DNA of 64,000 nt from an uncultured bacterium (GCA_964453435.1 CAYVQZ010000002.1:179439-243438); one strand, 5' to 3'; positions 38,160 through 62,140 are shown, counted from the first letter of the stretch. The notes: generated by a model not told the origin, from the letters alone. Made by a program: numbers and translations.

Positions 38160-38440
38160 ACTATTCATTTGTGGCATTCGTGTTCCAAGAGATTCTTCGG
38201 TCGCTTCGCCTCCTGAATGACAGGGAGAGGATATGTTTGAATGAATTATACCCTAAGGGGAATAGACACTGCGCGGATGGCCGAATGAATTTGGCCCCAT
38301 CCCGCGAAACGCGGGACTTCTCTAATAGCTCAGCACACTCTGAGAAAATCTGCGGATGAGGAATATATGGTCGAATGAATTCGACCCCACAGGGGGATTC
38401 GTATTCCGTATTTGTGCAGGCGCCAATTCATTCGCACGGG
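38160..38440. repeat. Intergenic repeat cluster: MITE arm + REP palindromes + 90-bp CCCGCGAAACGCGGG hairpin element
   Basis: gaagagattcttcggtcgct..cctgaatgacagggagag; ggccgaatgaatttggcccc; atcccgcgaaacgcgggacttc...gagaaaatctgcggatgaggaatatatggtcgaatgaattcgacccc; caggcgccaattcattcgcac. Confidence 0.8.
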
Positions 38441-38536
38441 TTTGATTGTATCTTCGTGCATTTGCGGCTTGAAACCCAAGGGTCTTTCCTGTTGCTTAAA
38501 GATTTCATCAGGCTAAACGGCGAATAGAGAAACAGA

Positions 38537-40840
38537 ATGGCTGCAGAGACAAAACGCTGTCCATACTGCAAGGAAGAAATCCTTGCCGATGCCATCCGAT
38601 GCAAGCATTGCCACATGATGCTTGATAAGGAACCTTCTGTTTCCGATGGATCGGACGTCGCCGCCGCCGGTCCCCTTGATGATGCGGCCACCCGGCTTCC
38701 CGATGATGTCGGCAGGGTTTTGTCCGGCCGATTCGAGATAAAAGAACTGATCGCCGAAGGAGGTTTCGGGAAGGTATATCGAGCTTACGACCGGGTGATG
38801 AAGATCGATGTCGCGATCAAGGAACTCTCCGACCGCTTTGAGAAGGACCGGAAGGCGGTCAGGTTCCTCCTCTCTGAGGCAAAGGCCGCGCACGCGCTGG
38901 CGCATCCTCGCATCGCGAAGTTCGATTACTACGACGAGAAGGGGAAATATCTCCTCATGGAATATGTTCCGGGCCTGGTGGTGGGGGAGACTGTGTGCCA
39001 CGACGTGGCCCAGTTGCTGGAGGCCCGGGGAGGGAAACTGTCGGAAGAGGAGGCGACCCGGATCATCCTGCAACTGCTCGAAGCGCTGCAATACGCCCAC
39101 GGTCTGCCCGAGCCGGTCATCCACCGCGACATCAAGCCGCAGAACCTGCTGCTGGACGCGCAGGGGAACGTGAAGGTATGCGACTTTGGCATCGCAAAGG
39201 TGGTGCGGGAGAGCGTGAGCCGGTATGGGATACCCGACACCAGCGGGACATTGATGTACATGAGTCCGGAACAGTGTGTGGGCAGGGGAGTGGACGCCCG
39301 CAGCGACATCTACTCTCTTGGCGTTACCTTGTACGAGCTTCTGAGCGGAAGGACGCCGTTCGAGGATGCCGAGGACGTCACCTATTGTCACATCAATGTG
39401 GAACCCGAGCCGATTCGAGGGGTGAGCGGGCGACTGAATGAAATCATTCTCAAATGCCTTGCCAAAAAGCCCGAAGATCGCTGGCAGAACGCCCGTGAGT
39501 TGGCCGACGCGCTGGAGGGGAGAATCGAGACGGATTCGGAACGCCGGGAGAAAGAACGAGCGCGAGCGGCGCTGAGGAAGCAGGAAGAAGAGCGAAAGCA
39601 ACGGGAGAAAGAAGAAGCCGAGCGCAAAGCAAAAGAAGAGGCTACGCGCCAGCGCGAGCTGGAAGAATCCCGCAGGCTCGGAGAAGAAGAGGAAAGAAGG
39701 CAAAGGGAGGCCGTCCGACGGCTTGACTTCCCAAGCGTTGGCCATGAGGAAGCTGCTCGAGAGTTCGAGGAAGAAAAGCGGAGAAAAGAGGCTGAGAGAA
39801 AAGCACGGGAAGAAGAGGAGGAGCGAGAAAAAAACCGAGCCGTCGTCGTGGTACTGGCGCTGATATTCTTTCTTGCGGTCGCGGTTATCGGTGGTATTTA
39901 CTATCAAGGACGGGTGCGGGAGGAAGGGGAGCGCGCCCTCCGCGAGGCGGCAGGGCGGTCTGAGCAGGAAGCGAAGCAGAAACAGGCGGAGACTGAGAAG
40001 ACGACCCAAAGAGAAGCCGTAAGACCCCAGCCTTCCCCGAAACCGGCGCCGGTTGTTGTTCCACAACCAAAGCCGACCGCTTCTCAAAAGGCGGCGGCGC
40101 AAGCTCCCGAGGGTATGGTTTTGATTCCCGCCGGCGAGTTCATGATGGGGAGCCTGTCGGGCGAGGGACACGATCATGAGCATCCGCAGCACCGTGTGTA
40201 TGTGGACGCGTTTTATATGGACAGGTATGAGGTGACGGTTGGCCAGTACAAGAGGTTTCTGAGCGCGACGGGACATCGAAGCCTTCCGGACTGGGTGTCC
40301 GAGTATTCTCGTACTGCCGACTGTCCTGTGGTGGGAGTGAGCTGGGATGACGCGGTGGCATACGCCCGCTGGGCTGGCAAGCGATTGCCGACGGAGGCCG
40401 AGTGGGAGTATGCGTGCCGGGCCGGGAGCGCGACGAAATACTCATTCGGAAACGACGAGGGCAGGCTCGGTGAGTATGCCTGGTACTATTCCAACTCCGG
40501 CCGAAAGACGCATCCGGTGGGCCAGAAGAAGCAGAACGCCTGGGGCCTGTATGACATGCACGGGAACGTGTGGGAATGGTGCTCGGACTGGTACGACAAG
40601 GATTATTATAGCAACAGCCCTTCACGGAACCCGAAGGGTCCAACGAACGGTCAGTATCGCGTGCTTCGCGGCGGTTCCTGGAACAATAACGCCAACAACG
40701 CGCGGGCGGCGAACCGGAACAACAACACGCCAACGAACACGAACAACAACAACGGGTTTCGGTGCGCCAGGACTGCTCGGAGAAACATCCTTCTCCTTGC
40801 CGGATTTCGGCAGTTCAAGGATTGCCGAAGCGCGCATTGA
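38537..40840 (+). CDS. Ser/Thr protein kinase: zinc ribbon + kinase + ER/K-rich helix + TM + FGE-sulfatase domain with Asn-rich low-complexity insertion
   Basis: About 95% nt identity to 35596..~36800 over zinc ribbon, kinase and ER/K. FGE domain [14 protein letters not shown]...[38 protein letters not shown]. Confidence 0.85.
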
Positions 40841-41039
40841 GGAGTCCAGACTCGCTCCTGCGCCGGCTTCGGGAAGCCGGCCGAAGATCACGCATGCCGG
40901 GGTTGGGCCGGTAGGGCGGGCACTACGGCTCGAACGCTCGGCCTCGGCGAATTTTTCTGGAGAAGTCGGGCTGCCTGAAGCGGGGCGTCGAACTGCGTTG
41001 TCATCCTGAACAAAGTGAAGGATCTCGCTTCTTAAGGAA

Positions 41040-41240
41040 GTTATAGTCTGAAGAGATTCTTCGGTCGCTCCCTCAGAATGACGGGGAGAGTTTTGGCCGA
41101 ATAAATTCGGCCCTACAGTGGGGAAATAGCGATTGGTTGAATGAATTTGTTCCCACGGGAAGCGAGTTTGGGGCAACATAAATTACCGCAAAGGATAGGG
41201 TCGTTGTAGGTGCGAATTTATTCGCACAGGTTTTTGGCGG
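41040..41240. repeat. REP cluster + MITE arm upstream of RAYT
   Basis: gaagagattcttcggtcgctccctcagaatgacggggagag; ggccgaataaattcggccctacag; ggttgaatgaatttgttccc; gtaggtgcgaatttattcgcacagg. Confidence 0.8.
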
Positions 41241-41277
41241 ATATACCCCGCTTCGATAGAGTAAATCGGTTGGATCG

Positions 41278-41736
41278 ATGTCATATGATGAACTGCGGAA
41301 AGGCAGGGTTTCGCGTGCAGGTCAAATATATTTTGTCACCACTGTCACATTGAATCGTAGGCCGTTTTTCGCTGATTTCCGGATGGCCAGAATGGTTGTT
41401 ACCGAAATGCGCAGATTGGATGAAGAAGGGCTTGTCCGCTCGATAGCATGGGTGTTGATGCCTGAGCATTTACACTGGCTCATGCAGATTGGAGAGACAC
41501 AGGAATTATCAAAGGTGGTAAAGTTGTTCAAGGCGCGTTCTGCAAGGCAAATTAACAGGACACTGCAAAGGAAAGGGTCGGTCTGGCAAAGAGCATATTA
41601 TGACCATGCGATTCGGAAAGAAGAAAACATTCATGAGATAGCAAAATACATCATTGCAAATCCGTTGCGAAGAGGATTGGTTTCGGGAATAGAAAAATAT
41701 TCATTTTGGGATATGGCATGGAATCTGGCCGAATAA
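41278..41736 (+). CDS. REP-associated tyrosine transposase (RAYT, IS200/IS605-like TnpA_REP)
   Basis: 152 aa with HuH motif (HLHWLM) and catalytic-Tyr region (YIIANPLRRGL). Immediately flanked on both sides by REP palindromes carrying GTAG/CTAC. Confidence 0.85.
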   Translation: MSYDELRKGRVSRAGQIYFVTTVTLNRRPFFADFRMARMVVTEMRRLDEEGLVRSIAWVLMPEHLHWLMQIGETQELSKVVKLFKARSARQINRTLQRKGSVWQRAYYDHAIRKEENIHEIAKYIIANPLRRGLVSGIEKYSFWDMAWNLAE

Positions 41737-41900
41737 ATTCGAGCCTACACGGGATTGCCGATGCGGTGCGATTGGCCGAATAAATTCGGCCCTATCCCGC
41801 GAAACGCGGGACTTCGCTATCGCTCAGCGAAATCTGAGAAAATCTGCGGATGAAGAATATATGGTCGAATAAATTCGACCCTACATATTAAACGCATTCA
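41737..41900. repeat. REP cluster + 90-bp hairpin element downstream of RAYT
   Basis: gcctacacgggattgccgatgcggtgcgattggccgaataaattcggccctatcccgcgaaacgcgggacttcgctatcgctcagcgaaatctgagaaaatctgcggatgaagaatatatggtcgaataaattcgaccctacat. Confidence 0.85.
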
Positions 41901-42085
41901 CCACGACAGCTAATCGTACTTCCTTCTTCACATCTGTGTGACGGGATGGTCACATTGATTGTGAAGCCTACAGACCGACAATCGTTTTAGTTCCCTTTTG
42001 ACTCTCAAAGGCCTCAATCCATTTTTCCCGCAATATCGACCTTTTTCGGATTTTGCCACGCCACAGACTCCGGCATCTGAAGCCG

Positions 42086-42103: not shown

Positions 42104-42162
42104 TCTCTCATTCCCGATTCGATTTGTGAACGTGGTCAATGAACAGGAAAGGAGAAAACGAA

Positions 42163-43152
42163 ATGTTCAAGAAACTGATCACACTGTTGGTAGTTGTCGG
42201 GCTCTTGTTCGCGCTGGTCACGCTTTCGGAGGGCGCGCGGGAAACGTTTGCGTTCGCGAGTGAGCCCGCCAGGAAAGTGGCCGAGACAACCTCCGAGCTG
42301 ACCCAGAAAATCGGAGGAGCAATCGGCCAGAAGTTCAGTCCGGCCGACATGATCCCGGAAAATGCCGAGATCGACTGGGGCGACGGCGTCATTCGCGCGA
42401 CAGGCCATGGCGCGCTGCCGGTCGCATCGCAGTCGTATCCCCAGGCGAAACTGATGGCGGTCGGCGCCGCCGAGCTTGACGCGCAGCGTATCCTCGCCGC
42501 GACGCTCCGGGGCGCGATGATAACATCGAAGCGCAAGCTGGAAAACTATATTCAGAAAGAGTATATCGTCGAGGAGAACGTGCACGCGATGATTCACGGC
42601 GCGCAGGTGACCGACGTCCGCGTGATGCCCGACGGCAATGTAGAGGTCGACATGGAGCTTCGGCTCAAGGGAATGGAGAAGAATGCCGTTGCCAAGGCCG
42701 CCGAGGCCGAGCCGCAGCCCGCTCCCGCCAATACCGGCGTCGTTCCCGGACGTATGCAGGGATGGCGCGCGCTCGATTATTACAACCCGACCGCCGATGT
42801 GCTGGGAAGAGAAAAAGACTTCACCGGGCTGATAATCAACGCGCAGAACCTGCACGCCACCGCCGCTCTGGCGCCCGAAATCATCACGGAAACCGGTGTG
42901 CCGGTGTTCCCTCAGAAGACAGAGGGCGAGACCGAGCCCGCGCGCGTGAACGTGGCCTACGAGCCGAGCATCAACCAGGCGATGAGCAATCCGAGAGCCG
43001 GCAGCAACCCCTTGATTCTTGATGCGGTTGCCACCGGCGGGCAGCTCCGCACCGACCTGGTGATTCGCGACGCCGACTATGAGCGCCTCGCCCGAAACCA
43101 GGGCGCAGATTCGGTGCTCTCGAGTGGAAGCATTGTTGTCGTGGTTGACTGA
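42163..43152 (+). CDS. Secreted protein with signal peptide, possibly LPP20-like
   Basis: AGGAG RBS. N-terminal signal MFKKLITLLVVVGLLFALVTLSEGA. No catalytic motifs. Start at the second Met of the track ORF. Confidence 0.6.
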   Translation: MFKKLITLLVVVGLLFALVTLSEGARETFAFASEPARKVAETTSELTQKIGGAIGQKFSPADMIPENAEIDWGDGVIRATGHGALPVASQSYPQAKLMAVGAAELDAQRILAATLRGAMITSKRKLENYIQKEYIVEENVHAMIHGAQVTDVRVMPDGNVEVDMELRLKGMEKNAVAKAAEAEPQPAPANTGVVPGRMQGWRALDYYNPTADVLGREKDFTGLIINAQNLHATAALAPEIITETGVPVFPQKTEGETEPARVNVAYEPSINQAMSNPRAGSNPLILDAVATGGQLRTDLVIRDADYERLARNQGADSVLSSGSIVVVVD

Positions 43153-43277
43153 AGTGGTTAAGGAGTCTGGAGTTAACGAAGTTGACAACCGTGAGGTCGA
43201 ATGATAAAATGTTCCGGCGCTCGAAAAAATTAACCTTCCAGATGATTGACTCACCCCCACAAATAGGAGGGCGCTCG

Positions 43278-44885
43278 ATGAGAAAGAATCTTCTGGCGTT
43301 CGGTGTCCTGCTGCTCCTGATTCTGTCCGGGTGCGCCACCACTACTCCCGTTAGCCCGCCGATGGCCTCCGTCCGCGTCGAGTCCACACCCGACCATGCC
43401 ACGGTCTATTGGTCGAAAAACGAGACCGGCCCGTGGTCAACGTGGGACACGACCGGCGGCCGGCATGTGACACCCACAACTCTCCGTGTTCCCGAGGGCG
43501 ACTATTATTGGATAAAGGTCGGGAAACCGGATTACCTGGACAGCGAGCCGCAGTTTGTGCGCCCGGTTGGCGGTCACGACGCTGAACTCGTTTTCGATCT
43601 TGAGATGGAACCCGAAAAATACGCTGCCCTGCAGCGCGCAAAAGGGCTGGCGCTTCACAATGGCGAATGGGTCGACCCCGCCGCGGCGGGATTGATTCAA
43701 CAGAATGGCCGGTGGGTGGACCCGAAAGAGGAAGGCCTGATCAACTACCGGGGCAGATGGGTCAGACCCACGGACGAAGGCCTTGTGTTTGCGGATGGCC
43801 AATGGATTACTCCGGCGGAGCGCGATGAGCGAATGGGCATCGCTCGCATTCCCGACACCGAAGCCATGGAACCGGAAGCGACGGTTGCCGAGGGAATTGC
43901 GGCGGTTATGAACGGCGACCTTGCGGCCGCGCGACAGGCGGCAATCGACAATGCGCTCAACAATGCTCTTCAACAGCAGATGGGACTGCATATGAAGAGC
44001 AGCCGCGTGTCCGAGAATTACATTTTGATGAAATATCGGATTGAGTCTGAGACATCGGGAGTCGTCGATTCCTACGACATTCTGGAAGAAGCGAACGACG
44101 CCGATTTCTATTGGGTAAAGCTCGAGGTGGTCTTTAGAGAGGATGTTATCAAGAGCAAGAACCTCGACAAGACGCGCGTGCTGATAGCCGGCGATGAGGT
44201 GTTTGTCACCGATAGCGTGTTGTTCACATCTACGCTTGCTTTGCAGGAAATGGCGAGCGCATTCGCCGAGGCGGGATTTCGCGTTGTGGGAGGTCCGGAC
44301 GCGAGCTGGAATCTGCGAACTGATGTTTTTGATGCGAGCGTGTTCGAGACGTATCGCGAACAGGCAAAATTTTCAGGGGCTGACCTTTTGGCTGTTATTA
44401 ACGCCAAAAGCCAGCTCGCCGACAAGTTCGGGAACCTCGTAACATTCAACACGAACATCGAGGGACGCGTTGTCAAGGCGGAGACGGGCGAGATAGTTGC
44501 CGCCAAAACCATGGAATTGCGCGGCGACCGCAAGCTGACCGAGCCGGAGGCCGGAGAGGTCTCGCTTGCGAAGGCCGGGAGAGAAATGGGCGACTATTTG
44601 ATTGGTCAAATTGTGAATCGATATGAGGGCCTGATTTCTCACACGCTCATGGTCAGCGGCGTGAAATCACGCGGGCAGGCCGATTTGATCGTCCGGGAAC
44701 TCAGAACCTGCAAAAGTGTAAAAAGCGCCAGCCTGCTCGAGTACGACTGGGAAACCGCACGGATCGAGGTGGAACTCACGCCGACGGCGAACGAGTTCTT
44801 TCCCGAATGCGTCAACAGGCTTCAGGATGTCCATCTGAAAGTGGTTCGCAGTTTACGTTGCGACACAGTTGCCAGAGTCTATTGA
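43278..44885 (+). CDS. Lipoprotein with PEGA-like domain, GxWVxPxxEGL short repeats and C-terminal domain
   Basis: AGGAGG RBS. Lipobox LLILSGC. PEGA-like segment TTLRVPEGDYYWIKVGKPDYLDSEP. Four NGxWVDPxxxGL-type repeats. Confidence 0.7.
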   Translation: MRKNLLAFGVLLLLILSGCATTTPVSPPMASVRVESTPDHATVYWSKNETGPWSTWDTTGGRHVTPTTLRVPEGDYYWIKVGKPDYLDSEPQFVRPVGGHDAELVFDLEMEPEKYAALQRAKGLALHNGEWVDPAAAGLIQQNGRWVDPKEEGLINYRGRWVRPTDEGLVFADGQWITPAERDERMGIARIPDTEAMEPEATVAEGIAAVMNGDLAAARQAAIDNALNNALQQQMGLHMKSSRVSENYILMKYRIESETSGVVDSYDILEEANDADFYWVKLEVVFREDVIKSKNLDKTRVLIAGDEVFVTDSVLFTSTLALQEMASAFAEAGFRVVGGPDASWNLRTDVFDASVFETYREQAKFSGADLLAVINAKSQLADKFGNLVTFNTNIEGRVVKAETGEIVAAKTMELRGDRKLTEPEAGEVSLAKAGREMGDYLIGQIVNRYEGLISHTLMVSGVKSRGQADLIVRELRTCKSVKSASLLEYDWETARIEVELTPTANEFFPECVNRLQDVHLKVVRSLRCDTVARVY

Positions 44886-44917
44886 GTTCGCATTTGGAAT
44901 GTAAAGGAGTGTGGCAA

Positions 44918-46006
44918 ATGAGAAAAGTCGGATTGACTGCACTGGCGACGCTGCTGCTTTTCCTGTGCCTGGTTCCTTCCGTATCCGCCGCCCTGACTCC
45001 GCTGGAACGCGAGGCCGCGCAGCAGGCCGTCCAGGCCTGCGTTCAGTCGCTGGGAAGCACCGATATCGAGGGCATGAACCGGATCGCCGTGCTGAAGCTC
45101 GATAACGACGACGGCGAGATCACCGACCTGCTTACTATCGCCCTGACGAAGACTCCATACAGCGTCGTGCTGCGGGAGGAGCTCGAGAAAGTTCTCACCG
45201 AGCACGAGTTCAACATTCGACATGCCGACATGATCGATGCATCGACCATGAAAAAACTGGGCGGATTCCTGGGAGTAGATGGTCTCATCATCGGAAGCGT
45301 CCAGGAACAGTCGGGAGACCAGCATCAGGCCCACCTGCGGCTCAACCTCAAGCTGGCGAACGTGGAAACCGGCGAAGCGGTGTGGGGTGAGGTCGCGCTC
45401 GGCGAAACAGGAAGCGCTCCGCCGCCGCCCGCGCCTCCCGAACCGCTCACGAAGAAGCTTTCGCAGCCGGCAGTCCTCATAGTACTCATATGTATTATGC
45501 TGTTCATCATATGGCTGGTCATGGTCGCCCGGAAACCAGTGAGCGACGCGCTGGAGAATCGATACGTTGTAAAACAGGACCGGCTCGACTCCGACCAGCG
45601 GTTGAGAAACAACATGGTGCGGCAGCTCGGCTCGGCTATCGACTCGCTTCGGAACGCGCGGAACCGGGCGCATGACGCAGGCAATGACGACCTGCGGCAG
45701 AAGCTGAAGGACTGCGAGCATTCCGTGGACCTGCTGAGAATGGAAATCAGCAATGCGGAATACGGCGCGTTGCCGTTTTTCGAAAAGGATAAGGTCGAAA
45801 CACGGCATCTCGACAAGATGGTCGATTTCGACAAGACATTCGAGTCGCTGATGAAAGATATCGTCCATGAATGCTCAGAGGTTGAAAAAGCGTCTGCTGA
45901 TAATCCGGGCGATGCAGGCAAATCGATAGAAAAGGTAAGCCGGCTTGCCAAGCAGCTCAAGGACAAATTCCAGGAGCGGAAAAGCTACCTGGCCGGCGTA
46001 GGATGA
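44918..46006 (+). CDS. Bitopic membrane protein: periplasmic LpoB/CsgG-like domain + TM + cytoplasmic coiled coil
   Basis: Signal peptide. RIAVLKLDNDDGEITDLLTIALT...LGVDGLIIGSV...LKLANVETGEAVW resembles the LpoB/CsgG fold pattern. TM helix VLIVLICIMLFIIWLVMV. Confidence 0.6.
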   Translation: MRKVGLTALATLLLFLCLVPSVSAALTPLEREAAQQAVQACVQSLGSTDIEGMNRIAVLKLDNDDGEITDLLTIALTKTPYSVVLREELEKVLTEHEFNIRHADMIDASTMKKLGGFLGVDGLIIGSVQEQSGDQHQAHLRLNLKLANVETGEAVWGEVALGETGSAPPPPAPPEPLTKKLSQPAVLIVLICIMLFIIWLVMVARKPVSDALENRYVVKQDRLDSDQRLRNNMVRQLGSAIDSLRNARNRAHDAGNDDLRQKLKDCEHSVDLLRMEISNAEYGALPFFEKDKVETRHLDKMVDFDKTFESLMKDIVHECSEVEKASADNPGDAGKSIEKVSRLAKQLKDKFQERKSYLAGVG

Positions 46007-46018
46007 GGCAATATCATC

Positions 46019-47326: not shown

Positions 47327-47413
47327 GTGGGGTAGAGAAGATGCGATGACTTTCGTACTAGTTTCACAAAACATCAAATATTAGAGATTCGGATCACGCG
47401 TAGGAGGAATGTC

Positions 47414-49189: not shown

Positions 49190-49330
49190 TTCGGCGAAAC
49201 AAAGATTCTTGGTCGAATGAATTCGACCTTACAGGGGATTGCCGATGCGGTGCGAATGGTCGAATGAATTCGACCCTACAAGGGGGCGCTTTTGTAGGCG
49301 CCAATTCATTCGCACGCTCTGTGACAATCG
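49190..49330. repeat. REP cluster
   Basis: ggtcgaatgaattcgaccttacaggggattgccgatgcggtgcgaatggtcgaatgaattcgaccctacaaggg...gtaggcgccaattcattcgcac. Confidence 0.85.
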
Positions 49331-49579: not shown

Positions 49580-49830
49580 GTAGACATTTTTGGCCGAATA
49601 AATTCGGCCCTACAGGGGATTGCCGATGCGGTGCGAATGGTCGAATGAATTCGACCCTATCCCGCGAAACGCGGGACTTCGCTATCGCTCAGCGAAATCT
49701 GAGAAAATCTGCGGATGAAGAACATATGGTCGAATGAATTCGACCCTGCAGGCGGTGGGTTTAGGGCAAGACGAATTACGGCGTAGGGCAATGAAATTGT
49801 AGGCGCCAATTCATTCGCACAGATTGGATA
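49580..49830. repeat. REP cluster + 90-bp hairpin element
   Basis: ggccgaataaattcggccctacagggg...ggtcgaatgaattcgaccctatcccgcgaaacgcgggacttcgctatcgctcagcgaaatctgagaaaatctgcggatgaagaacatatggtcgaatgaattcgaccctgcagg...gtaggcgccaattcattcgcac. Confidence 0.85.
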
Positions 49831-51924: not shown

Positions 51925-51944
51925 CCAATGTGGGGTGAAGGCGC

Positions 51945-53513: not shown

Positions 53514-54694
53514 ACCGACCAAATAGGAACACCTGCAAAAGCTGTGGCTCGCTCATCGCCCCGGACAAAAGCCTCTGCAGAAAATGTGAAATGAAAACAG
53601 GAGCGAAGCCTGGCGACATGAGTTCGAGAATCGCAGAGATGGAAGCGGCGACTTCACAGCGCCTGGCGGAAATGGAAAAGAGGCGGCAGGGCTTGGCCGA
53701 AAGCCTCGATACCTCGTTGCAGGAGAGATTGACGGCGAAGAAGAAAACCGAAACCCCCGCCTCCGTCGCTGAATCCCAGGAGACCCGAACGGCGGACGCC
53801 GACCCGCTCGAGGCGCAAAACCCCGGCGCGTTCGCCAAGCTCGAGCGGCTCTGCTCGGAGATCCGCCATTCGATTGTCGAGGCATGTTTTTACAACTTGA
53901 AGCTGCAATCTCAACTGTTGCCGAAAAAGGTCGGGTCAACTGATTTCATGCAGGAATTTCGTCGCAACCTCTCGCAGTTGCCTGCGGTCGCTTCCAGGTT
54001 ACAGGATTTTTTTAATCAAGAAATCGATGCACGCTTGAAGGTTTCTTCCCTTTTCAAGGAGGAATATGGGCGAGTAATGAATGGCCTGCAGCGCCTGAAG
54101 GGGACATCCTCCGAAAACGGCGAGCCAGCAGATGAATCGATCGAGGCCGCAAGGAACATTTCGGAATCGATTGACACGATTGTTGCGGGCCTGCAATCGA
54201 TTGACGACCGGGTCAGGAAGAATAAGGTTGACGTGAAAGACCTCCTTACAGGTGTTGCGGCGGCTTCGAGAGAGCGATGCGAGGAAGCCGGGGTGAAATT
54301 GTCCGTTCATTTACCCGATGGCTCCTTTCCCAGGGTGTATTCGACCGGAAGCCTCCTCTCGGACGTCCTCCACGAACTCATTCGCAATTCGCTCAAGCAT
54401 GCGTTCCCGCTGGCTGCCGCCGTGGAGAAATGCATTGAAATCGTTGCGGACATGAGCGAGGAACCCAACCGCTCGATCATCATTCAGGTCGCGGACAACG
54501 GGCAGGGATTCCCCTTGGAAACATTGGAGCGCGCTCGGACCGAAGAAACTCCGGCAAATGGCAATGGCTACGGGCTTCCCATGGTTATCCACAACATCGA
54601 GAACCTGCATGGAGGGCAGGTAACCTGCGACAGTTCACCGGAGAACGGAACGAAATTTGTCATCAGCATACCGACCAGGCCTCCGAAAGAATAA
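53510..54694 (+). CDS. Zinc-ribbon + coiled-coil + HATPase_c (GHKL) protein without recognisable His phospho-acceptor box
   Basis: N-terminal CKSCGSLIAPDKSLCRKCE. C-terminal N-box LHELIRNSLKHAF, G1 DNGQGFP, G2 GYGLPMV. ATGA overlap with the upstream FHA gene. Confidence 0.6.
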   Translation: MNRPNRNTCKSCGSLIAPDKSLCRKCEMKTGAKPGDMSSRIAEMEAATSQRLAEMEKRRQGLAESLDTSLQERLTAKKKTETPASVAESQETRTADADPLEAQNPGAFAKLERLCSEIRHSIVEACFYNLKLQSQLLPKKVGSTDFMQEFRRNLSQLPAVASRLQDFFNQEIDARLKVSSLFKEEYGRVMNGLQRLKGTSSENGEPADESIEAARNISESIDTIVAGLQSIDDRVRKNKVDVKDLLTGVAAASRERCEEAGVKLSVHLPDGSFPRVYSTGSLLSDVLHELIRNSLKHAFPLAAAVEKCIEIVADMSEEPNRSIIIQVADNGQGFPLETLERARTEETPANGNGYGLPMVIHNIENLHGGQVTCDSSPENGTKFVISIPTRPPKE

Positions 54695-54809
54695 GCCTCA
54701 TGAAGCTCACAAAATCTGTCGGCAAAATCCGATCCAGGGCCGAATTCATTCGGCCAGTTTTCGATTGTCAACCTTTGCGCCCTGACTTTTATTCTGAGCT
54801 TCCTGAATG

Positions 54810-55110
54810 TCATCCTGGCGCGCTCGCTGTCTTTCTGAGCGTTAGCGAAGAATCTCAGGATAAACTTCGTGAAAGGTCTCGGGTTGCGGAGAAGTTATTG
54901 ATGTTTGTCATTCTGAGCGCAGCGAAGAATCTTGTTTTTAAAGAAGTTATCTTGTGGAAGAGATTCTTCGGTCGCTCCGCTCCCTCAGAATGACAGGGAG
55001 AGACCGTCAGAACGATCAGAATCATAGGGAAGGAATCTGGCCGAATAAATTCGACCCTACAGGTGGGCGGATTGTGTAGGCGCGAATTCATTCGCACAGA
55101 TTTGATATAT
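54810..55110. repeat. Full MITE-like element with ~38-bp terminal inverted repeats, followed by REP palindromes
   Basis: gtcatcctggcg...tgtcattctgagcgcagcgaagaatct...gaagagattcttcggtcgctccgctccctcagaatgacagggagag; then ggccgaataaattcgaccctacagg and gtaggcgcgaattcattcgcac. Confidence 0.85.
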
Positions 55111-55158
55111 CGGCGTGCATCTGCGGTTGCAGGGACTCATTAGCAGGGATAAACTCTC

Positions 55159-58100
55159 ATGCCCGAAGATTTGAAAAATTGCCTTAATTGCAATACGCAA
55201 CTTGGCAAAGATGACTCCGTCTGCCCGAATTGCGGCCTCGAGGTTCATGTGGACCACTTGGACGACCAGCCGACCCGGCTGGCTGGCGGTCCACTCGTAG
55301 GCGGTGAGCCGGGGACCGGAGAATTGCTCGACGACGCCGAAACCGTATTAGGAGCGCAGAGAGAAGGGTTGGGATTTGATTCTTCGCTGACTCGTGAATC
55401 CGCAACCCGTAGCAGGTACCGGATACTCGACACACTCGGCGAGGGCGGTATGGGAGTGGTCTACAAGGCCGAGGACACCAAGCTCCGCCGCACCGTCGCG
55501 ATCAAAAGACTGCTTCCGAAAGCCGAAGCCCAGCAGAAAGGTCTCGACCGATTCCTGCGGGAGGCGCACGTTGTCGCAGGCCTGAACCACATCAACATCG
55601 TGAATGTCTTTGACATAGAGCGGGACGCGAAGGGTCCGTTCATCGTAATGGAGTACGTGGAAGGAAAGAGCCTGGAGAGGGTTATCGAAGAGGAAGGGAA
55701 GATTGAGGAATCACGGGCGATAGAGCTGTTCAAGCAGGTATGTCAGGCAATCGGGTATGCCCACAGAGTGGATATCATCCATCGAGATATAAAACCGGCA
55801 AACATTATCATTACTTCCGACGGCGTTCCCAAGGTGCTGGACTTCGGGCTGGCGCAGATGGCGACCGAGTCGGATCTCTCGAAGACGGGCTACGGCATGG
55901 GCACGATGTACTACATGCCGCCGGAGCAGACGAGGGACGCGAAGAATGTCGACCACCGGGCGGATATCTATGCGCTTGGCGCCACGCTGTATCACATGCT
56001 GACCGGCGAGCGTCCGAAGCTGATAAAGGCCGACAAACTCTCTGCGGGACTGAAGGCTTTGGTCTTCAAATGCATGGAAGAGAATCCGCGGGACAGATAT
56101 TTCAGCATATCCGAAATTCTTGTTGACGTAGAGTCTTCCGTTTCGGCAAAAGACTCGAAGCCACCGAGACTGGAGTCGGAGGACGCCTGCCACAACTGCG
56201 GCTATGTCAACCCCGAAAGCGCGCGTTTCTGCAAGGCATGCGGCACGGGTTTGTTCGAGAAATGCCCGAAATGCGAGGGCGAGAACCGAGTCGGCTCGAA
56301 ATACTGCATGTCGTGCGGGCTCAACATACCGGACTTCAGGAAAGCCCGTGAGCATACCCAGCGCGCGCAGGAGTATCTCAAAAATTACAAATATTCCCGC
56401 GCCATCAAGGAACTTAAAGCAGCCCTCCAACTTGAGGTCGGGAAGATAGAAATGGAAGCTTTGCTCGCGACAGCGGAAGAGAGCCTGGCAAAGCTCAATG
56501 CACACAAAGAGAGAGCCCAAACGCTCAAGCGCGAAGAGAAATATAAGGAAGCAGAGCAAGAAATCTTGAAGGCGCTCGAACTCGACCCATCCGATGATTC
56601 CGCCGAAGAACTGAGGAGGGAAATCGGCGCTCTCATTCAGGAAGAACATCTGGCTAAAGCCGAGGCTCTGAGACGTGAATACAAATTTGAGGAGGCGGCA
56701 GCCGAATATCAACTGGTCCTGGAGCGGAACTCGGCCCATGAGAGAGCAATAAAGGCGCATAAAGAGGTCCGGGAAATCCTCGATAGTATTCTGAACCACA
56801 AAAAGAGAGCGGACGCGTTGCTCGAGCAGAAGAGATATCAGCAAGCGATAGATGAATATGAACAGATACTGAGCCTTGCGCCGACTGATGCATATGCCAA
56901 GGGTTCTGTAAAGAAGTGCCAGAAGCTACTTGAGGAAATTGAGTCGCTCAACAGGAAAGCGAACGAGGCGCTTGCCGACAAAGCATTTCCAGACGCCATA
57001 CAATTTCTGCAAAGGCTTCTCAATCTTTCTGACGATGTCGAGTCAGTTACGCATAAGCTCGAATTAGCGCGAAGCGCGCAAAAGCAAATAGTTGCCCATC
57101 TCAAGGAGGGCCGCAGACTTGCAGATAACGGCCGATACGATGAGGCGATAGAAGAGTACCGGAAAGTCCTCTCTGTTGACAGAGAACACTCGAAAGCCTC
57201 CGAGGAACTGGCTCGAATCGGGCAAACTGTTAGAGAAATAGAGAAGCTGGAAGAAGACCTGACGGCAAGCCTGGACAGGGGAGACTTTGCCGAAGCGGTT
57301 CGCCTCATACAGGCCCTGCAAGAGCACAAGCGTGATACGAAGTGGGCGGAGAACCTGTTGCAGGAGGCAAAGTCAAAGGAGGCAAGGATACGGGCGCACT
57401 ACAACGCCGCGACCAATTGGTATGGTGTCAGGAAGTATTGCAAATCAATCAGAGAAGCCGAGCGCATACTCGAAATAGCGCCATCCCATGCGGGGGCGTT
57501 GGAGATAATCGAGAAATCGAGAAGAAAAATCTCATTAATGTTGAAAGGCTTCGCGGCACTCGTGATACTCGGTCTCTCAATCGCGTTGGTCGCATACATC
57601 TCTTATCAAATTCGCAATTATTCAAAATATGTGGAGCAGGCCGAGGAAGCATTCAAGCAGGAAAAATGGGTGGAGGCGAGCAGCTACTGCATGGAGGCGC
57701 TGGAGCTCAATTCCGACGGCAAGAGAGCACTACAACTCTTGGCTGAACTGGCGCCGGCGTTGGAGACAATTGCCCAAGATGCCCGAGAGGAAGCCTTGAG
57801 CGCAAGAAAAACCGCTGAAGATGCGATGGCGCCTCTCTATGCCAAAACGACTTACGAGAGCGCCTCCAGGAGCCATGCCGAGGCGGATTCCCATTTTGGA
57901 GCAAACGGTTTTGGCCCGGCTGCACAAGCGTACAGGGGCGCCGCCGAGCAGTATCAGAACGCAACGAGCGAGGCAAAAACCGCAATGGCCAAAGCGAAGG
58001 AAGAGGCTGACAGGGAAAAATCAGCGCTCGGGGAGACGAAAAACAAGATTGATGCGCAGAAAGCAGGAAGCTATGCCCGTGAATCATTCGAGGCGGGCAA

Positions 58101-58761
58101 GCAGGCTGAGCGGTCAGCAAGTATTGAATATGACAAACAACGCTATGCGGCGGCGGCTCAAAAATATCGCCAAGCACATGCCTATTATAAAAATGTCTTA
58201 GAGCATGTCAGCAGAGCAATGGCCGAGGAAGAACTGCGCAAGCAAGCTGCTAAGGCGAGGGTGGCGATGGAGGGGTTGCTTGATGCGGCAAAGGAGGCAG
58301 AGGCACCGAAGTATGCCTCATCAGAGTTCACTTCTGCCGAGCAAGAGAGAAAGAAGGCGGAGGAATATGACCGGCGAGGAAACAGTCAACTGGCAAAGAC
58401 ATACTACGAGAAAGCCCAATCCTTATATGAGAATTCCGTTCGAACGGCTAGGCAGGAAAAGGCCCGGCTCGAGGCCACTGCGAAGAAAGCTGAGAGAATG
58501 GAAGGGCTGGTAAATTTCCTCGTTTGGCTTGTTCTGATACTTTTTTGCTTTTTTATAGCGCGTGCATTGTCCCGTTTGAGCTTTAGAGGTGGTTGTGGGT
58601 TTCTGATTTTCATATTCTTAGTAGTGCTGCCTATTTTACAGATTGTAATGGACGAATATTTTGATTCTGTAACTAAGGTGAAAATGATGGCGCCCATAAC
58701 GATTTTATTTACGATAGTTGCAACGATATTCCTTATTTTAAAAGCTCCGCGCCACCTATAA
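55159..58761 (+). CDS. Ser/Thr protein kinase: zinc ribbon + kinase + triple zinc-ribbon module + TPR repeats + TM + TPR/coiled coil + C-terminal multi-TM segment
   Basis: 1200 aa. CLNCNTQLGKDDSVCPNCG. Kinase motifs. CHNCGYV..CKACG..CPKCEGE..CMSCG. TPR-like helices. TM helices at ~aa 795 and at the C-terminus. Confidence 0.85.
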   Translation: MPEDLKNCLNCNTQLGKDDSVCPNCGLEVHVDHLDDQPTRLAGGPLVGGEPGTGELLDDAETVLGAQREGLGFDSSLTRESATRSRYRILDTLGEGGMGVVYKAEDTKLRRTVAIKRLLPKAEAQQKGLDRFLREAHVVAGLNHINIVNVFDIERDAKGPFIVMEYVEGKSLERVIEEEGKIEESRAIELFKQVCQAIGYAHRVDIIHRDIKPANIIITSDGVPKVLDFGLAQMATESDLSKTGYGMGTMYYMPPEQTRDAKNVDHRADIYALGATLYHMLTGERPKLIKADKLSAGLKALVFKCMEENPRDRYFSISEILVDVESSVSAKDSKPPRLESEDACHNCGYVNPESARFCKACGTGLFEKCPKCEGENRVGSKYCMSCGLNIPDFRKAREHTQRAQEYLKNYKYSRAIKELKAALQLEVGKIEMEALLATAEESLAKLNAHKERAQTLKREEKYKEAEQEILKALELDPSDDSAEELRREIGALIQEEHLAKAEALRREYKFEEAAAEYQLVLERNSAHERAIKAHKEVREILDSILNHKKRADALLEQKRYQQAIDEYEQILSLAPTDAYAKGSVKKCQKLLEEIESLNRKANEALADKAFPDAIQFLQRLLNLSDDVESVTHKLELARSAQKQIVAHLKEGRRLADNGRYDEAIEEYRKVLSVDREHSKASEELARIGQTVREIEKLEEDLTASLDRGDFAEAVRLIQALQEHKRDTKWAENLLQEAKSKEARIRAHYNAATNWYGVRKYCKSIREAERILEIAPSHAGALEIIEKSRRKISLMLKGFAALVILGLSIALVAYISYQIRNYSKYVEQAEEAFKQEKWVEASSYCMEALELNSDGKRALQLLAELAPALETIAQDAREEALSARKTAEDAMAPLYAKTTYESASRSHAEADSHFGANGFGPAAQAYRGAAEQYQNATSEAKTAMAKAKEEADREKSALGETKNKIDAQKAGSYARESFEAGKQAERSASIEYDKQRYAAAAQKYRQAHAYYKNVLEHVSRAMAEEELRKQAAKARVAMEGLLDAAKEAEAPKYASSEFTSAEQERKKAEEYDRRGNSQLAKTYYEKAQSLYENSVRTARQEKARLEATAKKAERMEGLVNFLVWLVLILFCFFIARALSRLSFRGGCGFLIFIFLVVLPILQIVMDEYFDSVTKVKMMAPITILFTIVATIFLILKAPRHL

Positions 58762-58979
58762 CAATCATTGTGATTTTCGAAAGGTCACACGCATAGCTTT
58801 TTGTCGTGAAATGGATTCCAGCTTTCGCGGGAATGGCAAGGAAAAAGCTTTCATCCGCTCAATTCGTTGCAATTTGTGGTATTCGTGTTCCAAAAGTTTG
58901 GATGTGGCTACGCTACGCCATGTAACGCGTTAACTTCTTTGAAAACGAGATCCTTCAATACGTTCAGGATGACAACGGA

Positions 58980-59160
58980 GAAACGGTGGTTCTCAGCATG
59001 TTATTTTGTCATTCTGAGGAAGCGCAGCGACCGAAGAATCTCAATCATTTTCTTGTACTACAAATGAACGCGAGGCTGAATGACATACCGGGTAAGATTT
59101 TAAACTTTAGACATTTTTGGTCGAATGAATTCGGGCCCACAGAGATGCGATTAAAGGCAT
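58980..59160. repeat. MITE arm + REP
   Basis: tgtcattctgaggaagcgcagcgaccgaagaatctc; ggtcgaatgaattcgggcccacag. Confidence 0.7.
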
Positions 59161-59182
59161 CGGAGGGTAACTGAAATCAATT

Positions 59183-61645
59183 ATGGCTGAAGACCTGAAG
59201 ATATGTCGGAATTGCGGCGCGCCGCTGAGCGAGAACCAGTTGATGTGCCCGGCCTGCGGAACGCGATGGGGCACGGATGCACTCGATGCTGAACCGACGC
59301 AACTGGCCGGCCACGCAAAAATCCAGGGCGAGTCGCTCGATGACGCCGAGACCATACTGAAAGAGCAGGGCATCGGGCCGGGACTTGATTCCACGGTAAC
59401 CAGCGAATCCGCAACCCGTAGCAGGTACCGGATACTCGACACACTCGGCGAGGGCGGTATGGGAGTGGTCTACAAGGCCGAGGACACCAAGCTCCGCCGC
59501 ACCGTCGCGATCAAAAGACTGCTTCCGAAAGCCGAAGCCCAGCAGAAAGGTCTCGACCGATTCCTGCGGGAGGCGCACGTTGTCGCAGGCCTGAACCACA
59601 TCAACATCGTGAATGTCTTTGACATAGAGCGGGACGCGAAGGGTCCGTTCATCGTAATGGAGTACGTGGAAGGAAAGAGCCTGGAGAGGGTTATCGAAGA
59701 GGAAGGGAAGATTGAGGAATCACGGGCGATAGAGCTGTTCAAGCAGGTATGTCAGGCAATCGGGTATGCCCACAGAGTGGATATCATCCATCGAGATATA
59801 AAACCGGCAAACATTATCATTACTTCCGACGGCGTTCCCAAGGTGCTGGACTTCGGGCTGGCGCAGATGGCGACCGAGTCGGATCTCTCGAAGACGGGCT
59901 ACGGCATGGGCACGATGTACTACATGCCGCCGGAGCAGACGAGGGACGCGAAGAATGTCGACCACCGGGCGGATATCTATGCGCTTGGCGCCACGCTGTA
60001 TCACATGCTGACCGGCGAGCGTCCGAAGCTGATAAAGGCCGACAAACTCTCTGCGGGACTGAAGGCTTTGGTCTTCAAATGCATGGAAGAGAATCCGCGG
60101 GACAGATATTTCAGCATATCCGAAATTCTTGTTGACGTAGAGTCTTCCGTTTCGGCAAAAGACTCGAAGCCACCGAGACTGGAGTCGGAGGACGCCTGCC
60201 ACAACTGCGGCTATGTCAACCCCGAAAGCGCGCGTTTCTGCAAGGCATGCGGCACGGGTTTGTTCGAGAAATGCCCGAAATGCGAGGGCGAGAACCGGGT
60301 AGGCTCGAAATACTGCATGTCGTGCGGGCTGAACATTCCTGACTTTAAGAAATCTCAGGAGCATCTGCAGCGCGCCCAGGAATACCTGAAGGAATACAAG
60401 TACTCGCGCGCGATAAAGGAACTGAAGGCCGCGCTGGAGCTCGAGGTCGAGAAGGCGGAGCTTCAAAGCCTTCTCTCGGAAGCCCAGGAAAAACTTTCGC
60501 GGCTTAACGAGCACCGAGAGAAGGCCGAAGTCCAGAAGCAGGATGGAAGCTACGAAGAAGCCGAACAAGCGGTTCTCGCAGCGATTGACTTGGACCCACA
60601 TGATGAAACGCTTCATTTGTTAAAGGGTGACATCCAGAATTTGATTCAGGAGATGCATCTGCGCGAAGCGCGCGCCAAGGCGGAACAAGAAGATTATGAA
60701 GGGGCGCTTTGTGGATGCGATAAGGTGTTCAAGTACAATCCGAACAATCGTGAGGCGAGCGAATTGCGTGACGAAGTTCTCGCCAACACAAAGAGGAAGG
60801 TCGAATTCATCTGTGCGAAGATAAAAGAGAGTCGCGCTCGCATTAACATCGAAGTCGCCGAAGGGCTGCGTCATTCGAGGTATATGCAGGGGGAGAAAGA
60901 ATGCCGACTTGCCGAAGAGGCGTTAAACTGTGGAGAGATAGGAAAGGCGCTTCGTTATTACAATCAATCGCTGGAGCAATATAGCGCTGCGGCGCGGGAA
61001 CTGGCTATTTATGATGCTTTGCCGCTCAAGTTTGAGAACTCTGTCGGCATGGAATTTGTTCTGATACCGGCGGGCGAGTTCATGATGGGCAGCCCTGAGG
61101 GCGAGGGAGACTATGATGAGCGCCCGCAACACAAAGTGATAATAACCAGACCCTTCTATATGCAGACCACTCCCGTTACACAAGCGCAGTGGAAGAAGGT
61201 GATTGGCAGGAAATTCTTGAGGAGAACCAAAAACCCATCGTACTTCAAGGGGGATGACCTGCCTGTGGAGAGAGTCAGTTGGAAAGATGCGCAGAGATTT
61301 CTGGAAAAGCTGAATCAGAAGGAACAAAAGGGAAGGTATCGCCTGCCGACGGAGGCCGAGTGGGAGTACGCATGCCGCGCCGGAAGCGCGACGAAATACT
61401 CATTCGGCAATGACGAGGGCAGGCTTGGCGAGTACGCCTGGTATGATAAAAACTCCGGCGGAAAAACGCACCCGGTGGGCCAGAAGAAGCCGAACGCCTG
61501 GGGCCTGTATGACATGCACGGCAACGTGTGGGAGTGGTGCTCGGACTGGTACGACAAGGACTACTATCGTAACAGCCCTTCACGGAACCCGAAGGGTCCA
61601 ACGAACGGTCGGTATCGCGTGCTTCGCGGCGGCTCGTGGTCTTAG
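59183..61645 (+). CDS. Ser/Thr protein kinase: zinc ribbon + kinase + zinc-ribbon module + TPR + FGE-sulfatase domain interrupted by in-frame TAG
   Basis: Nucleotides 59405-60297 are 100% identical to 55396-56288. FGE domain [18 protein letters not shown]...RVLRGGSWS then TAG at 61643-61645. Confidence 0.8.
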   Translation: MAEDLKICRNCGAPLSENQLMCPACGTRWGTDALDAEPTQLAGHAKIQGESLDDAETILKEQGIGPGLDSTVTSESATRSRYRILDTLGEGGMGVVYKAEDTKLRRTVAIKRLLPKAEAQQKGLDRFLREAHVVAGLNHINIVNVFDIERDAKGPFIVMEYVEGKSLERVIEEEGKIEESRAIELFKQVCQAIGYAHRVDIIHRDIKPANIIITSDGVPKVLDFGLAQMATESDLSKTGYGMGTMYYMPPEQTRDAKNVDHRADIYALGATLYHMLTGERPKLIKADKLSAGLKALVFKCMEENPRDRYFSISEILVDVESSVSAKDSKPPRLESEDACHNCGYVNPESARFCKACGTGLFEKCPKCEGENRVGSKYCMSCGLNIPDFKKSQEHLQRAQEYLKEYKYSRAIKELKAALELEVEKAELQSLLSEAQEKLSRLNEHREKAEVQKQDGSYEEAEQAVLAAIDLDPHDETLHLLKGDIQNLIQEMHLREARAKAEQEDYEGALCGCDKVFKYNPNNREASELRDEVLANTKRKVEFICAKIKESRARINIEVAEGLRHSRYMQGEKECRLAEEALNCGEIGKALRYYNQSLEQYSAAARELAIYDALPLKFENSVGMEFVLIPAGEFMMGSPEGEGDYDERPQHKVIITRPFYMQTTPVTQAQWKKVIGRKFLRRTKNPSYFKGDDLPVERVSWKDAQRFLEKLNQKEQKGRYRLPTEAEWEYACRAGSATKYSFGNDEGRLGEYAWYDKNSGGKTHPVGQKKPNAWGLYDMHGNVWEWCSDWYDKDYYRNSPSRNPKGPTNGRYRVLRGGSWS

Positions 61646-61735
61646 GCCGGGGGCGTGCGGGCGGCGCTCCGGTACGGCGACACGCCGACGGGCGCGAGCA
61701 GCAACGTCGGTTTTCGTTGCGCCCAGGATAAATAA
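61646..61735 (+). other. In-frame post-stop continuation encoding the conserved end of the FGE-sulfatase domain (AGGVRAALRYGDTPTGASSNVGFRCAQDK*)
   Basis: Same frame as the kinase ORF, immediately after the TAG. It matches the paralog C-termini (..[14 protein letters not shown] / ..RSAYRDIGTP..VGFRCAKD). Confidence 0.7.
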
Positions 61736-61799
61736 TTACCACTTAGCTCCTTTAGAACTTTACCAGTTGCAATGCCGCGCAATGCGCGGCATCGAAAAT

Positions 61800-62140
61800 A
61801 TTTTTTGGAAATTGGAATCGTGGAAGAGATTCTTCGGTCGCCGCGCTCCCTCAGAATGACAGGGAGGGTTTTGGTCGAATGAATTCGGATTCATGGTGTG
61901 TAGGTGCGAATTCATTCGCACACGGTGTTGGTCGAATAAATTCGACCCTACGTGAGAACGCGGATATTGGTGCGATTGGCCGAATAAATTCGGCCCTATC
62001 CCGCGAAACGCGGGACTTCGCTATCGCTCAGCGAAATCTGAGAAAATCTGCGGATGAACAACAGATGGTCGAATGAATTCGACCCTACAGGGGGATTGTG
62101 GATTATGCAGGCGCGAATTCATTCGCACAATTGTCTGTCA
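61800..62140. repeat. MITE arm + dense REP cluster + 90-bp hairpin element
   Basis: gaagagattcttcggtcgccgcgctccctcagaatgacagggagg; ggtcgaatgaattcggat; gtaggtgcgaattcattcgcac; ggtcgaataaattcgaccctacg; ggccgaataaattcggccctatcccgcgaaacgcgggacttcgctatcgctcagcgaaatctgagaaaatctgcggatgaacaacagatggtcgaatgaattcgaccctacaggg; gcaggcgcgaattcattcgcac. Confidence 0.85.

Follow-up and report, generated by a model that had tools for sequence, protein, structure and literature searches.

The stretch of DNA analysed here (64,000 bp from an uncultured bacterium, GCA_964453435.1 CAYVQZ010000002.1:179439-243438; hereafter the window) contains a gene for a tyrosine transposase of the REP-associated type (RAYT, also TnpAREP) amid short repetitive extragenic palindromic (REP) sequences. 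Six zinc-ribbon Ser/Thr kinase genes lie in the same window (e.g. 32,713-35,583, 35,596-37,785, 38,537-40,840, one starting at 49,906, 55,159-58,761 and 59,183-61,645). The RAYT gene and the REP elements are arranged as follows:

38235-38441 (both strands): REP cluster A, a full composite module upstream of the kinase gene 38537-40840; degenerate REPa 38235-38252 (+), REPb 38279-38296 (+), a structured 71-nt spacer, REPc 38369-38386 (+), inverted REPd 38420-38437 (-)
41095-41231 (both strands): REP cluster B1, directly upstream of the RAYT gene; 41095-41112 (+), degenerate 41135-41152 (+), 41210-41227 (-)
41278-41736 (+): RAYT (TnpAREP) gene, 152 aa, from Pfam and NCBIfam matches and alignment to 4ER8
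41727-41884 (+): REP cluster B2, directly downstream of the RAYT gene and overlapping its end; REPa 41727-41744, REPb 41774-41791, spacer, REPc 41863-41880 with CTAC
49211-49319 (both strands): REP cluster C, the short form of the module; 49211-49228 (+), 49258-49275 (+), 49298-49315 (-)
49592-49824 (both strands): REP cluster D, a full composite module upstream of the kinase gene that starts at 49906; 49592-49609 (+), 49639-49656 (+), spacer, 49728-49745 (+), 49803-49820 (-)
54734-54755 (-): single REP GGCCGAATGAATTCGGCC (54738-54755), then CTGG, just past the stop codon of gene 53510-54694
55039-55101 (both strands): REP cluster E, a REPIN-like inverted pair upstream of the kinase gene 55159-58761; 55039-55056 (+), 55080-55097 (-)
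59119-59140 (+): single REP F, GGTCGAATGAATTCGGGC, then CCAC, upstream of the kinase gene 59183-61645
61873-62132 (both strands): REP cluster G, downstream of the kinase gene 59183-61645 and upstream of the sigma-54 regulator gene 62239-63729; degenerate 61873-61890 (+), 61904-61921 (-), then a full module: 61930-61947 (+), 61978-61995 (+), spacer, 62067-62084 (+), 62111-62128 (-)

The RAYT gene and the REP palindromes around it

The product of the RAYT gene matches the Pfam family Y1_Tnp (PF01797) at 49.9 bits and the NCBIfam model REP_Tyr_transpos (NF047646) at 158.1 bits (cutoff 80), and its score against the IS200 model NF033573 is 36.9 bits, under the cutoff of 55. In an alignment with Escherichia coli TnpAREP (4ER8), residues H64-L-H66, Y124 and N128 coincide with H59-M-H61, Y115 and N119, of which Messing et al. 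described H59/H61 as the HuH motif, Y115 as the catalytic tyrosine and N119 as a metal ligand (PMC3479197). These columns vary little or not at all among 17 homologues: H64 never differs, and at least 90% of the homologues keep H66 and Y124. By these matches, the protein belongs to the RAYT clade of Y1 HuH nucleases, and the catalytic residues whose presence had been flagged for checking are in place.

The motifs of the protein (EHLH, VWQ and YIIANP), its length and the shortness of the REPs fit TnpAREP subclass 2.5, which corresponds to Bertels Group 3 and for which Quentin et al. list DH[LF]H, WQ, YI[VI]ANP, a mean length of ~ 151 aa and short REPs (Table 1, PMC6006769); this putative assignment is made by those characters and not by a tree. 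The sole deviation from the subclass motifs is the conservative substitution of E for D in EHLH, the homologues having DHLH. In the NCBI protein database, the protein appears in a 114-aa form starting at M39; the first 38 residues are, however, conserved in the homologues, which indicates that the true product has 152 aa. The gene is present in a single copy within the window, and no tnpB-like open reading frame adjoins it. As originally predicted, it is bracketed by REPs, three within 185 bp upstream (41,095-41,227) and three within 150 bp downstream (41,727-41,880).

Searches of the window with GGYCGAATRAATTCGRCC, allowing up to two mismatches, gave 32 strand-hits versus 0.06 expected from dinucleotide-preserving shuffles, and the variant GTGCGAATRAATTSGCGCC gave seven matches, on the minus strand every time, versus 0.03 expected. 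A census with the core pattern GAAT[AGT]AATT identified 27 REP elements between 38,235 and 62,128 (~ 0.06 expected), in agreement with the earlier figure of at least 25, and their consensus is TGGYCGAATRAATTCGRCC-CTAC. The clusters lie at the positions first reported (38.2, 41.1, 41.8, 49.2, 49.6, 55.0, 59.1 and 61.9 kb), to which the single copy at 54,738-54,755 (-) is to be added. A stray degenerate match at 34,493, within a kinase gene, is probably due to chance.

At least six of the eight stem pairs are formed in 24 of the 27 REPs. The tetranucleotide CTAC, whose background frequency is 0.0016 per position, follows the stem exactly in 13 copies and with at most one mismatch in 24, so that the description of CTAC as almost always present stands if one mismatch is allowed but is somewhat generous for the exact motif. 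On the strand opposite to that of most copies, the REP reads as a 22-nt unit composed of 5'-GTAG and a hairpin of 7-8 bp with a 4-nt loop. Two stem variants occur, GGYCGAAT.. and GTGCGAAT... The base 5' of GTAG is T in 18 copies, and in eight the preceding dinucleotide is CT, which recalls the CT sites where E. coli REPs are cleaved. Lone REPs folded as DNA reach -6.5 to -7.8 kcal/mol, with z-scores of -4.3 to -4.9.

With one exception, the REPs lie between open reading frames. The exception overlaps the final 10 nt of the RAYT gene: this first downstream REP holds the last three RAYT codons, with the TAA stop in its loop, and the protein ends in WDMAWNLAE versus the ...WD-A-WL usual in the family. 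The elements are thus short extragenic palindromes with a stem-loop and a tetranucleotide at its 5' foot, as is characteristic of GTAG-type REPs, and have the same format as the REPs tabulated by Nunvar et al. (Table 1, PMC2817692). No Rfam family matched the REPs or the X repeats described below, at either gathering or E-value thresholds; a literature search with the REP core sequence returned only unrelated primer matches, and a promoter and terminator scan yielded nothing above shuffles. A CRISPR-like array was considered and rejected, as the spacing is irregular and unique spacers are absent.

Alignment of the clusters revealed a recurring composite, consisting of REPa, a 29-nt linker, REPb, a 71-nt spacer with two small hairpins (CCCGCGAAACGCGGG and CTCAGCGAAATCTGAG), REPc, a variable spacer of 13-57 nt and an inverted REPd of the GTGCGAAT subtype. 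Full composites occupy 38.23-38.44, 49.59-49.82 and 61.93-62.13 kb; partial ones are found directly after the RAYT gene (41.73-41.88 kb, lacking REPd) and at 49.21-49.32 kb (the short form). The 160-nt a-b-c part shows 94% and 91% identity among three sites with unrelated flanks (cluster B2, which has no inverted REPd, is 94% identical over 160 nt to 49591-49750), and this homology opens with the first base of the REPa stem and closes with the CTAC of REPc. The orientation of the module is + + + -, that is, three direct REPs ending in an inverted pair that can fold as a long hairpin, so that it departs from the regular alternation of a classical BIME. REPc and REPd of cluster A co-fold into such a REPIN-like hairpin, cluster D as a whole folds at -50.1 kcal/mol (z = -4.0), and the pair of cluster E at -12.9 kcal/mol (z = -2.7).

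The module spacer (CTATCCCGCGAAtGCGCGGGACTTCGCT..GCTCAGCGA) has a fifth copy at 9354-9452, in the REP-free left half of the window. What brackets it there is another inverted pair, ending in GTAG/CTAC (GTAGGGGGCAGCCC.../...GGGTACAGCCCCTAC), and a Logan contig from the same organism (L252) breaks exactly at this copy. The pair may represent a second, possibly native, GTAG-REP/REPIN family that has the spacer in common with the main one.

The REP zone also contains a second palindromic family, which we refer to as X:

41000-63930 (both strands): repeat family X, unrelated to REP (GTCATTCTGAG...GCGACCGAAGAATCTC), 12 copies, mostly in inverted pairs ~ 75 nt apart, at 41000/41073, 49417, 49494, 54907/54985, 58964/59008, 61851, 63763 and 63837/63915

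The X sequence has the form GTCAT(T/C)CTGAG...GCGACCGAAGAATCTC. Since several X copies stop 5-50 nt 5' of the first REP of a cluster, the intergenic regions appear as X and REP mosaics. X repeats were found neither in the first 41 kb of the window nor in ~ 1.4 Mb of REP-bearing loci from other organisms.

As far as could be tested, the palindromes are not confined to the window, since they occur in other genomes as well. Among the matches listed, the REP 22-mer with its CTAC was present in at least 120 stretches from ~ 65 genome assemblies, nearly all of them Gamma- or Betaproteobacteria (including Stutzerimonas, Parahaliea, Oceanisphaera, Zobellella, Methylobacter, Acidiferrobacteraceae and Gallionellaceae), with one assembly labelled Planctomycetota. 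At least 120 stretches of metagenome sequence carry the GTGCGAAT variant, frequently in the form of inverted doublets; none of the 120 such loci listed aligned with the window or matched the module spacer, and module spacers were likewise absent from the ~ 1.4 Mb of other REP-bearing loci. At all eight loci inspected (L008, L075, L115, L202, L218, L248, L249 and L250), REPs of this family flank a RAYT homologue at a distance of no more than 600 bp, often in both stem variants. Identity to the RAYT of the window was 51-60% in five REP-bearing loci and 61-65% in three further contigs.

A plasmid search of 72,556 records returned only 13 with any RAYT homologue, the best at 45% identity, and no vector for the RAYT of the window was found among them. 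By the usual account, RAYTs do not occur on plasmids. The 45% homologue (31707-32168 of the 98-kb Pseudomonas plasmid NZ_CP135972.1, L251) is flanked by a different, Pseudomonas-type REP, as is expected for a distant RAYT if RAYTs and REPs co-evolve.

Host, probable horizontal origin and local distribution

The window encodes qrcB and qrcD. The best named relatives of its QrcD are from Hydrogenedentota (77%) and Candidatus Abyssobacteria (71-72%), followed by Thermodesulfobacteriota at 62%, and by this one marker the host is probably a Hydrogenedentota/Abyssobacteria-type bacterium. In the contig whose QrcD is 77% identical (L246), perfect palindromes GTAGGGGCGCACGGCCGTGCGCCCCTAC stand directly after gene ends at 11261-11288 and 12742-12769; by their sequence they are a different GTAG-tagged REP family in the host lineage.

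The RAYT gene stands out in composition: its GC content is 0.442 (44% versus 56%), its GC at third codon positions (GC3) is 0.458 and its codon usage correlates at r = 0.32, values that rank among the lowest ~ 1% when set against 269 native windows of 152 codons. The other genes of the REP zone match the rest of the window in GC, GC3 and codon usage (r = 0.94). In eight other hosts, the RAYT gene is only 0-8 points under its flanks in GC content, and in one it is ~ 1 point over. This compositional foreignness, together with the fact that the nearest named RAYTs are proteobacterial, favours horizontal acquisition, and the system was probably acquired in this way by a non-proteobacterial host. 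Horizontal transfer has been inferred earlier for this protein class in general by Quentin et al. (2018; PMC6006769).

One additional piece of evidence was provided by a relative, L242, that keeps the four-gene order CsgG/LpoB-like, Zn-ribbon, DZR-SPFH and kinase, with protein identities to the window of 67% for DZR-SPFH and 59% for the kinase. Between the latter two genes L242 has a REP-free spacer of 138 bp, whereas the window has 860 bp containing seven REPs and X elements. This empty site indicates that the REPs are insertions later than the gene order or, less likely, that they were lost in the relative.

The distribution of REPs along the window is strongly uneven. Of the intergenic DNA, the ~ 4.3 kb to the right of 37.8 kb holds all 27 and the ~ 5.0 kb to the left holds none (p ~ 1e-9 if REPs are treated as independent, 0.002 if the eight clusters are taken as units), and none occurs in the 4,960 bp left of the window that are covered by L252. 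In total, 69 kb of host-genome DNA was examined, of which the REP zone comprises 24 kb around the RAYT gene. The Qrc neighbourhoods of relatives L244-L247 (~ 70 kb) contain no such REP, but this is uninformative, as the Qrc side of the window itself is equally REP-free. Block-wise clustering of REPs has precedents in GTAG-23 of Thermomicrobium roseum and in the arrays around Thauera exopolysaccharide (EPS) genes (PMC3733652).

A tentative extension, which we regard as rather improbable, is that a Group-3-type REP-RAYT system was recently transferred into a Hydrogenedentota/Abyssobacteria-like genome and is at an early stage of local colonisation, in which the four-REP composite has spread only within the ~ 24 kb near the RAYT gene by cis or local hopping and has not yet reached the rest of the chromosome. 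Systems of this type have been described as essentially vertically inherited and mostly proteobacterial, and few other populations resembling mobile elements are believed to be maintained by vertical descent as REP/RAYT systems are; we know of no documented case of the founding of a new REP population. If the extension is true, the locus is a natural snapshot of such a founding. More generally, it provides a clean REPtron in what is probably a little-studied candidate phylum, combining a RAYT of foreign composition, a REP that is letter for letter that of many Gamma- and Betaproteobacteria, an orthologous empty site and a markedly local arrangement of the REPs. Should the REPs prove to be confined to the vicinity of the RAYT gene genome-wide, the locus would be a useful illustration from nature of a REP population founded by horizontal transfer and spreading with a cis bias; failing that, it is of routine interest for annotation.

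Competing explanations and the kinase paralogs

We consider that the window most probably (at roughly 85%) contains a REPtron, i.e. a RAYT gene, single-copy within the window, with its cognate flanking REPs, together with a local REP population, that the system was probably acquired horizontally, and that its REPs entered a local gene order, kinases included, which was already established. The functional-looking REP/RAYT system of the original prediction is thus upheld at the level of sequence by the RAYT model, the HuH and tyrosine residues, GTAG with its hairpin, the recurrence of the same REP at eight of eight other RAYT loci and the empty site of L242.

By analogy with E. coli TnpAREP and IS200/IS605, the RAYT would bind the folded REP on single-stranded DNA and read the GTAG guide at the foot of the hairpin; it would then cut and rejoin through a 5'-phosphotyrosine (Y124), with the metal held by H64/H66. 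GTAG-dependent cleavage and rejoining of a REP on single-stranded DNA has been demonstrated for E. coli TnpAREP only (PMC3479197). By the same analogy, REPs or REP multimers could thereby be copied to new extragenic sites, here preferentially near the RAYT gene. Secondary roles such as mRNA 3'-end protection, attenuation and mRNA stability, as for E. coli REPs, are possible.

Several observations weigh against this explanation. RAYT-mediated transposition of REPs in vivo is undemonstrated for any system (PMC6006769; bioRxiv paper), and the spread of whole modules could also be explained by recombination or gene conversion. In the protein, R132 replaces H123 of E. coli, and the C-terminal tail bearing E161 is missing in the clade to which the protein belongs. 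Three of the seven inverted copies (the GGCGCC variant) do not fold alone, and three direct REPs per module are atypical, head-to-tail REP dimers being rare in most genomes (PMC3733652). The host assignment has a one-protein basis, and no REPs occur in the 43 kb next to the REP zone, of which 38 kb belong to the window and 5 kb to L252. A high, dispersed genome-wide copy number, usually above 100, is the usual hallmark of REPs.

The alternative that fares best is that the REPs are a decaying or static relic, the number of modules having grown through homologous recombination, gene conversion or slippage during replication between intergenic regions, with RAYT catalysis uninvolved and the RAYT itself idle or domesticated for another task on single-stranded DNA. 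The repeated unit is indeed a whole module of 160-250 nt, non-REP spacer included; the adjoining kinase genes are gene-conversion-like mosaics (89.7% over 1,422 bp and 94.6% over 1,128 bp), indicating that recombination is active here; REPs at 38235, 41135 and 61873 are degenerate; and the lack of in vivo evidence for RAYT-driven movement noted above counts in its favour. However, module homology halts exactly at the REP stem and at CTAC instead of extending into the flanks, single REPs and doublets exist as well (54738, 59119, 55039/55080), the RAYT reading frame is intact with every catalytic residue present, and the identical REP-RAYT pairing has been kept across many distant genomes. We therefore regard the relic as unlikely.

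Another important question is whether the REP clusters served as the recombination substrates behind the kinase paralog array and mark its duplication breakpoints, as the original prediction suggested. Domain by domain, the kinase genes form mosaics, in which some segments reach 80-95% nucleotide identity and others share little: 35,617-37,038 is 89.7% identical to 38,558-39,976 (1,422 bp), 55,318-56,445 is 94.6% identical to 59,327-60,454 (1,128 bp), the FGE-sulfatase domains are 79-85% identical, and 34615-35263, 40127-40772 and 61344-61730 form another such set. This pattern points to a recent duplication or gene conversion that affected only the kinase core and the FGE-sulfatase domain. 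A role for the REPs seemed attractive, as REPs are known as recombination hot spots in other bacteria and a REP cluster stands at one boundary of five of the six kinase genes. The statement that nearly every kinase paralog is accompanied by REPs holds to that extent, but the junction of the first two kinase genes (35,583/35,596) is a 12-bp spacer free of REPs. Moreover, when paralog breakpoints were compared with REP positions, all seven inter-paralog tracts were found to end inside coding sequence, 130-5,362 bp from the nearest REP, with extents that match protein domains. REPs border non-kinase genes just as much (the RAYT gene and those at 42139, 53510-54694 and 62239), and in L242 the orthologous kinase gene already follows the SPFH gene without any REP, so that the SPFH/kinase junction at 49 kb predates the REPs. 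The position of REPs between genes is accounted for by their being tolerated there, in spacers between co-directional transcription units. An origin of the kinase array by REP recombination is thus not supported by the sequence, and we consider it very unlikely.

The palindromes could instead be operator or terminator sites (for a dimeric regulator, or as RNA hairpins of the kinase genes) unrelated to the transposase-like gene. Such sites would agree with the perfect 8-bp inverted repeats around GAATTC-like cores, with positions 50-110 bp upstream of several start codons and with the co-transcription expected for co-directional genes. The identical sequence, however, stands beside unrelated genes in ~ 65 unrelated assemblies among the matches listed and at RAYT homologues in eight of eight loci; as many as seven copies occupy one spacer, no T-tract follows the hairpin, the lone terminator-like match does not exceed shuffles, and no Rfam family matches, which makes regulatory sites of this kind highly improbable. 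An ordinary IS200/IS605 insertion sequence or miniature inverted-repeat (MITE-like) derivatives can practically be dismissed: the RAYT is homologous to IS200 TnpA (Pfam Y1_Tnp; PDB 2F4F and 2EC2 matches), but it scores 36.9 against the IS200 equivalog (cutoff 55) and 158 against the RAYT model, has the Y-motif YIIANP of RAYTs and not the Y---Q of IS200, and is one gene copy beside 27 hairpins, with tnpB absent.

For annotation, the repeats should be masked, the RAYT should be entered as a protein of 152 aa, and the kinase family should not be credited to REP-mediated recombination.

Three further features of the window were recorded. A group-II-D1D4-6 intron match of Rfam (31523-31756, +; 118 bits, gathering threshold 49) lies in the 1.9-kb gap upstream of the first kinase gene. 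A defence-like block (16096-24535, -) comprises HsdR of a type I restriction system (598 bits), a TIR-domain protein (20159-21262) and a fusion of HsdM methylase and GIY-YIG nuclease (22556-24535). The gene at 46019-47326 (+) encodes a 435-aa zinc-ribbon protein that matches the first ~ 313 of the 1,903 positions of the anti-phage ProA model at 280 bits, far under the cutoff of 1,500; its block of five genes (42139-49045), which also encodes CsgG/LpoB-like and SPFH proteins, is conserved in L242 too.

Comparison with known systems

The closest counterpart is TnpAREP subclass 2.5, or RAYT Group 3, of the Pseudomonas and Xanthomonas type. Bertels and Rainey (2011) and Bertels et al. (2017) are said to have described Group 3 RAYTs with short REPs or REPINs. 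The common features are a length of ~ 151 aa, the motifs (D/E)HLH, WQ and YI[VI]ANP, short GTAG-tagged REPs, a single gene flanked by them and REPIN-like foldable inverted pairs. The system of the window differs in its probable Hydrogenedentota/Abyssobacteria host, which is neither a Xanthomonad nor a Pseudomonad, in the E that begins its HuH motif in place of D, and in the arrangement of three direct REPs and one inverted REP versus inverted doublets.

With the REP/BIME system of E. coli (bacterial interspersed mosaic elements) and its TnpAREP (YafM; RAYT Group 2; 4ER8), the window has in common the 5'-GTAG with a hairpin, the mosaic intergenic grouping, the HuH motif with a single tyrosine and the REPtron layout. 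The two proteins are only distantly related (E = 1.6e-8). Furthermore, the REPs of the window have perfect stems of 7-8 bp without a bulge, whereas E. coli TnpAREP needs a bulge, and E. coli BIMEs alternate in orientation, whereas the modules of the window are mostly head-to-tail.

The GTAG-tagged REP super-family of Di Nocera et al. 2013 (PMC3733652), which includes the GTAG-23 and the Thauera GTAG-1 arrays mentioned above, likewise has GTAG at one end of a stem-loop, a mostly extragenic position between co-directional genes and a mixture of singletons, dimers and large clusters; it is a precedent both for block-wise clusters and for hosts outside the Proteobacteria. The REP of the window, GTAG-GGYCGAAT-Y-ATTCGRCC, is set beside the GTAG families by description only. 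Its core is abundant in Stutzerimonas stutzeri among the matches listed, and P. stutzeri hosts GTAG-24 (PMC3733652), a possible equivalent.

IS200/IS605 TnpA (Y1) has the catalytic fold in common with the RAYT and, as its likely chemistry, the recognition of a hairpin and a tetranucleotide on single-stranded DNA; the system described here differs in its gene, which is single-copy within the window, its score under the IS200 cutoff, its other Y-motif and repeats that far outnumber the gene. Taken together, these comparisons identify a known kind of system, set apart by a host that is probably not proteobacterial, a RAYT of foreign composition, a module of four REPs that is mainly head-to-tail and the strictly local occurrence of the REPs in the 69 kb examined.

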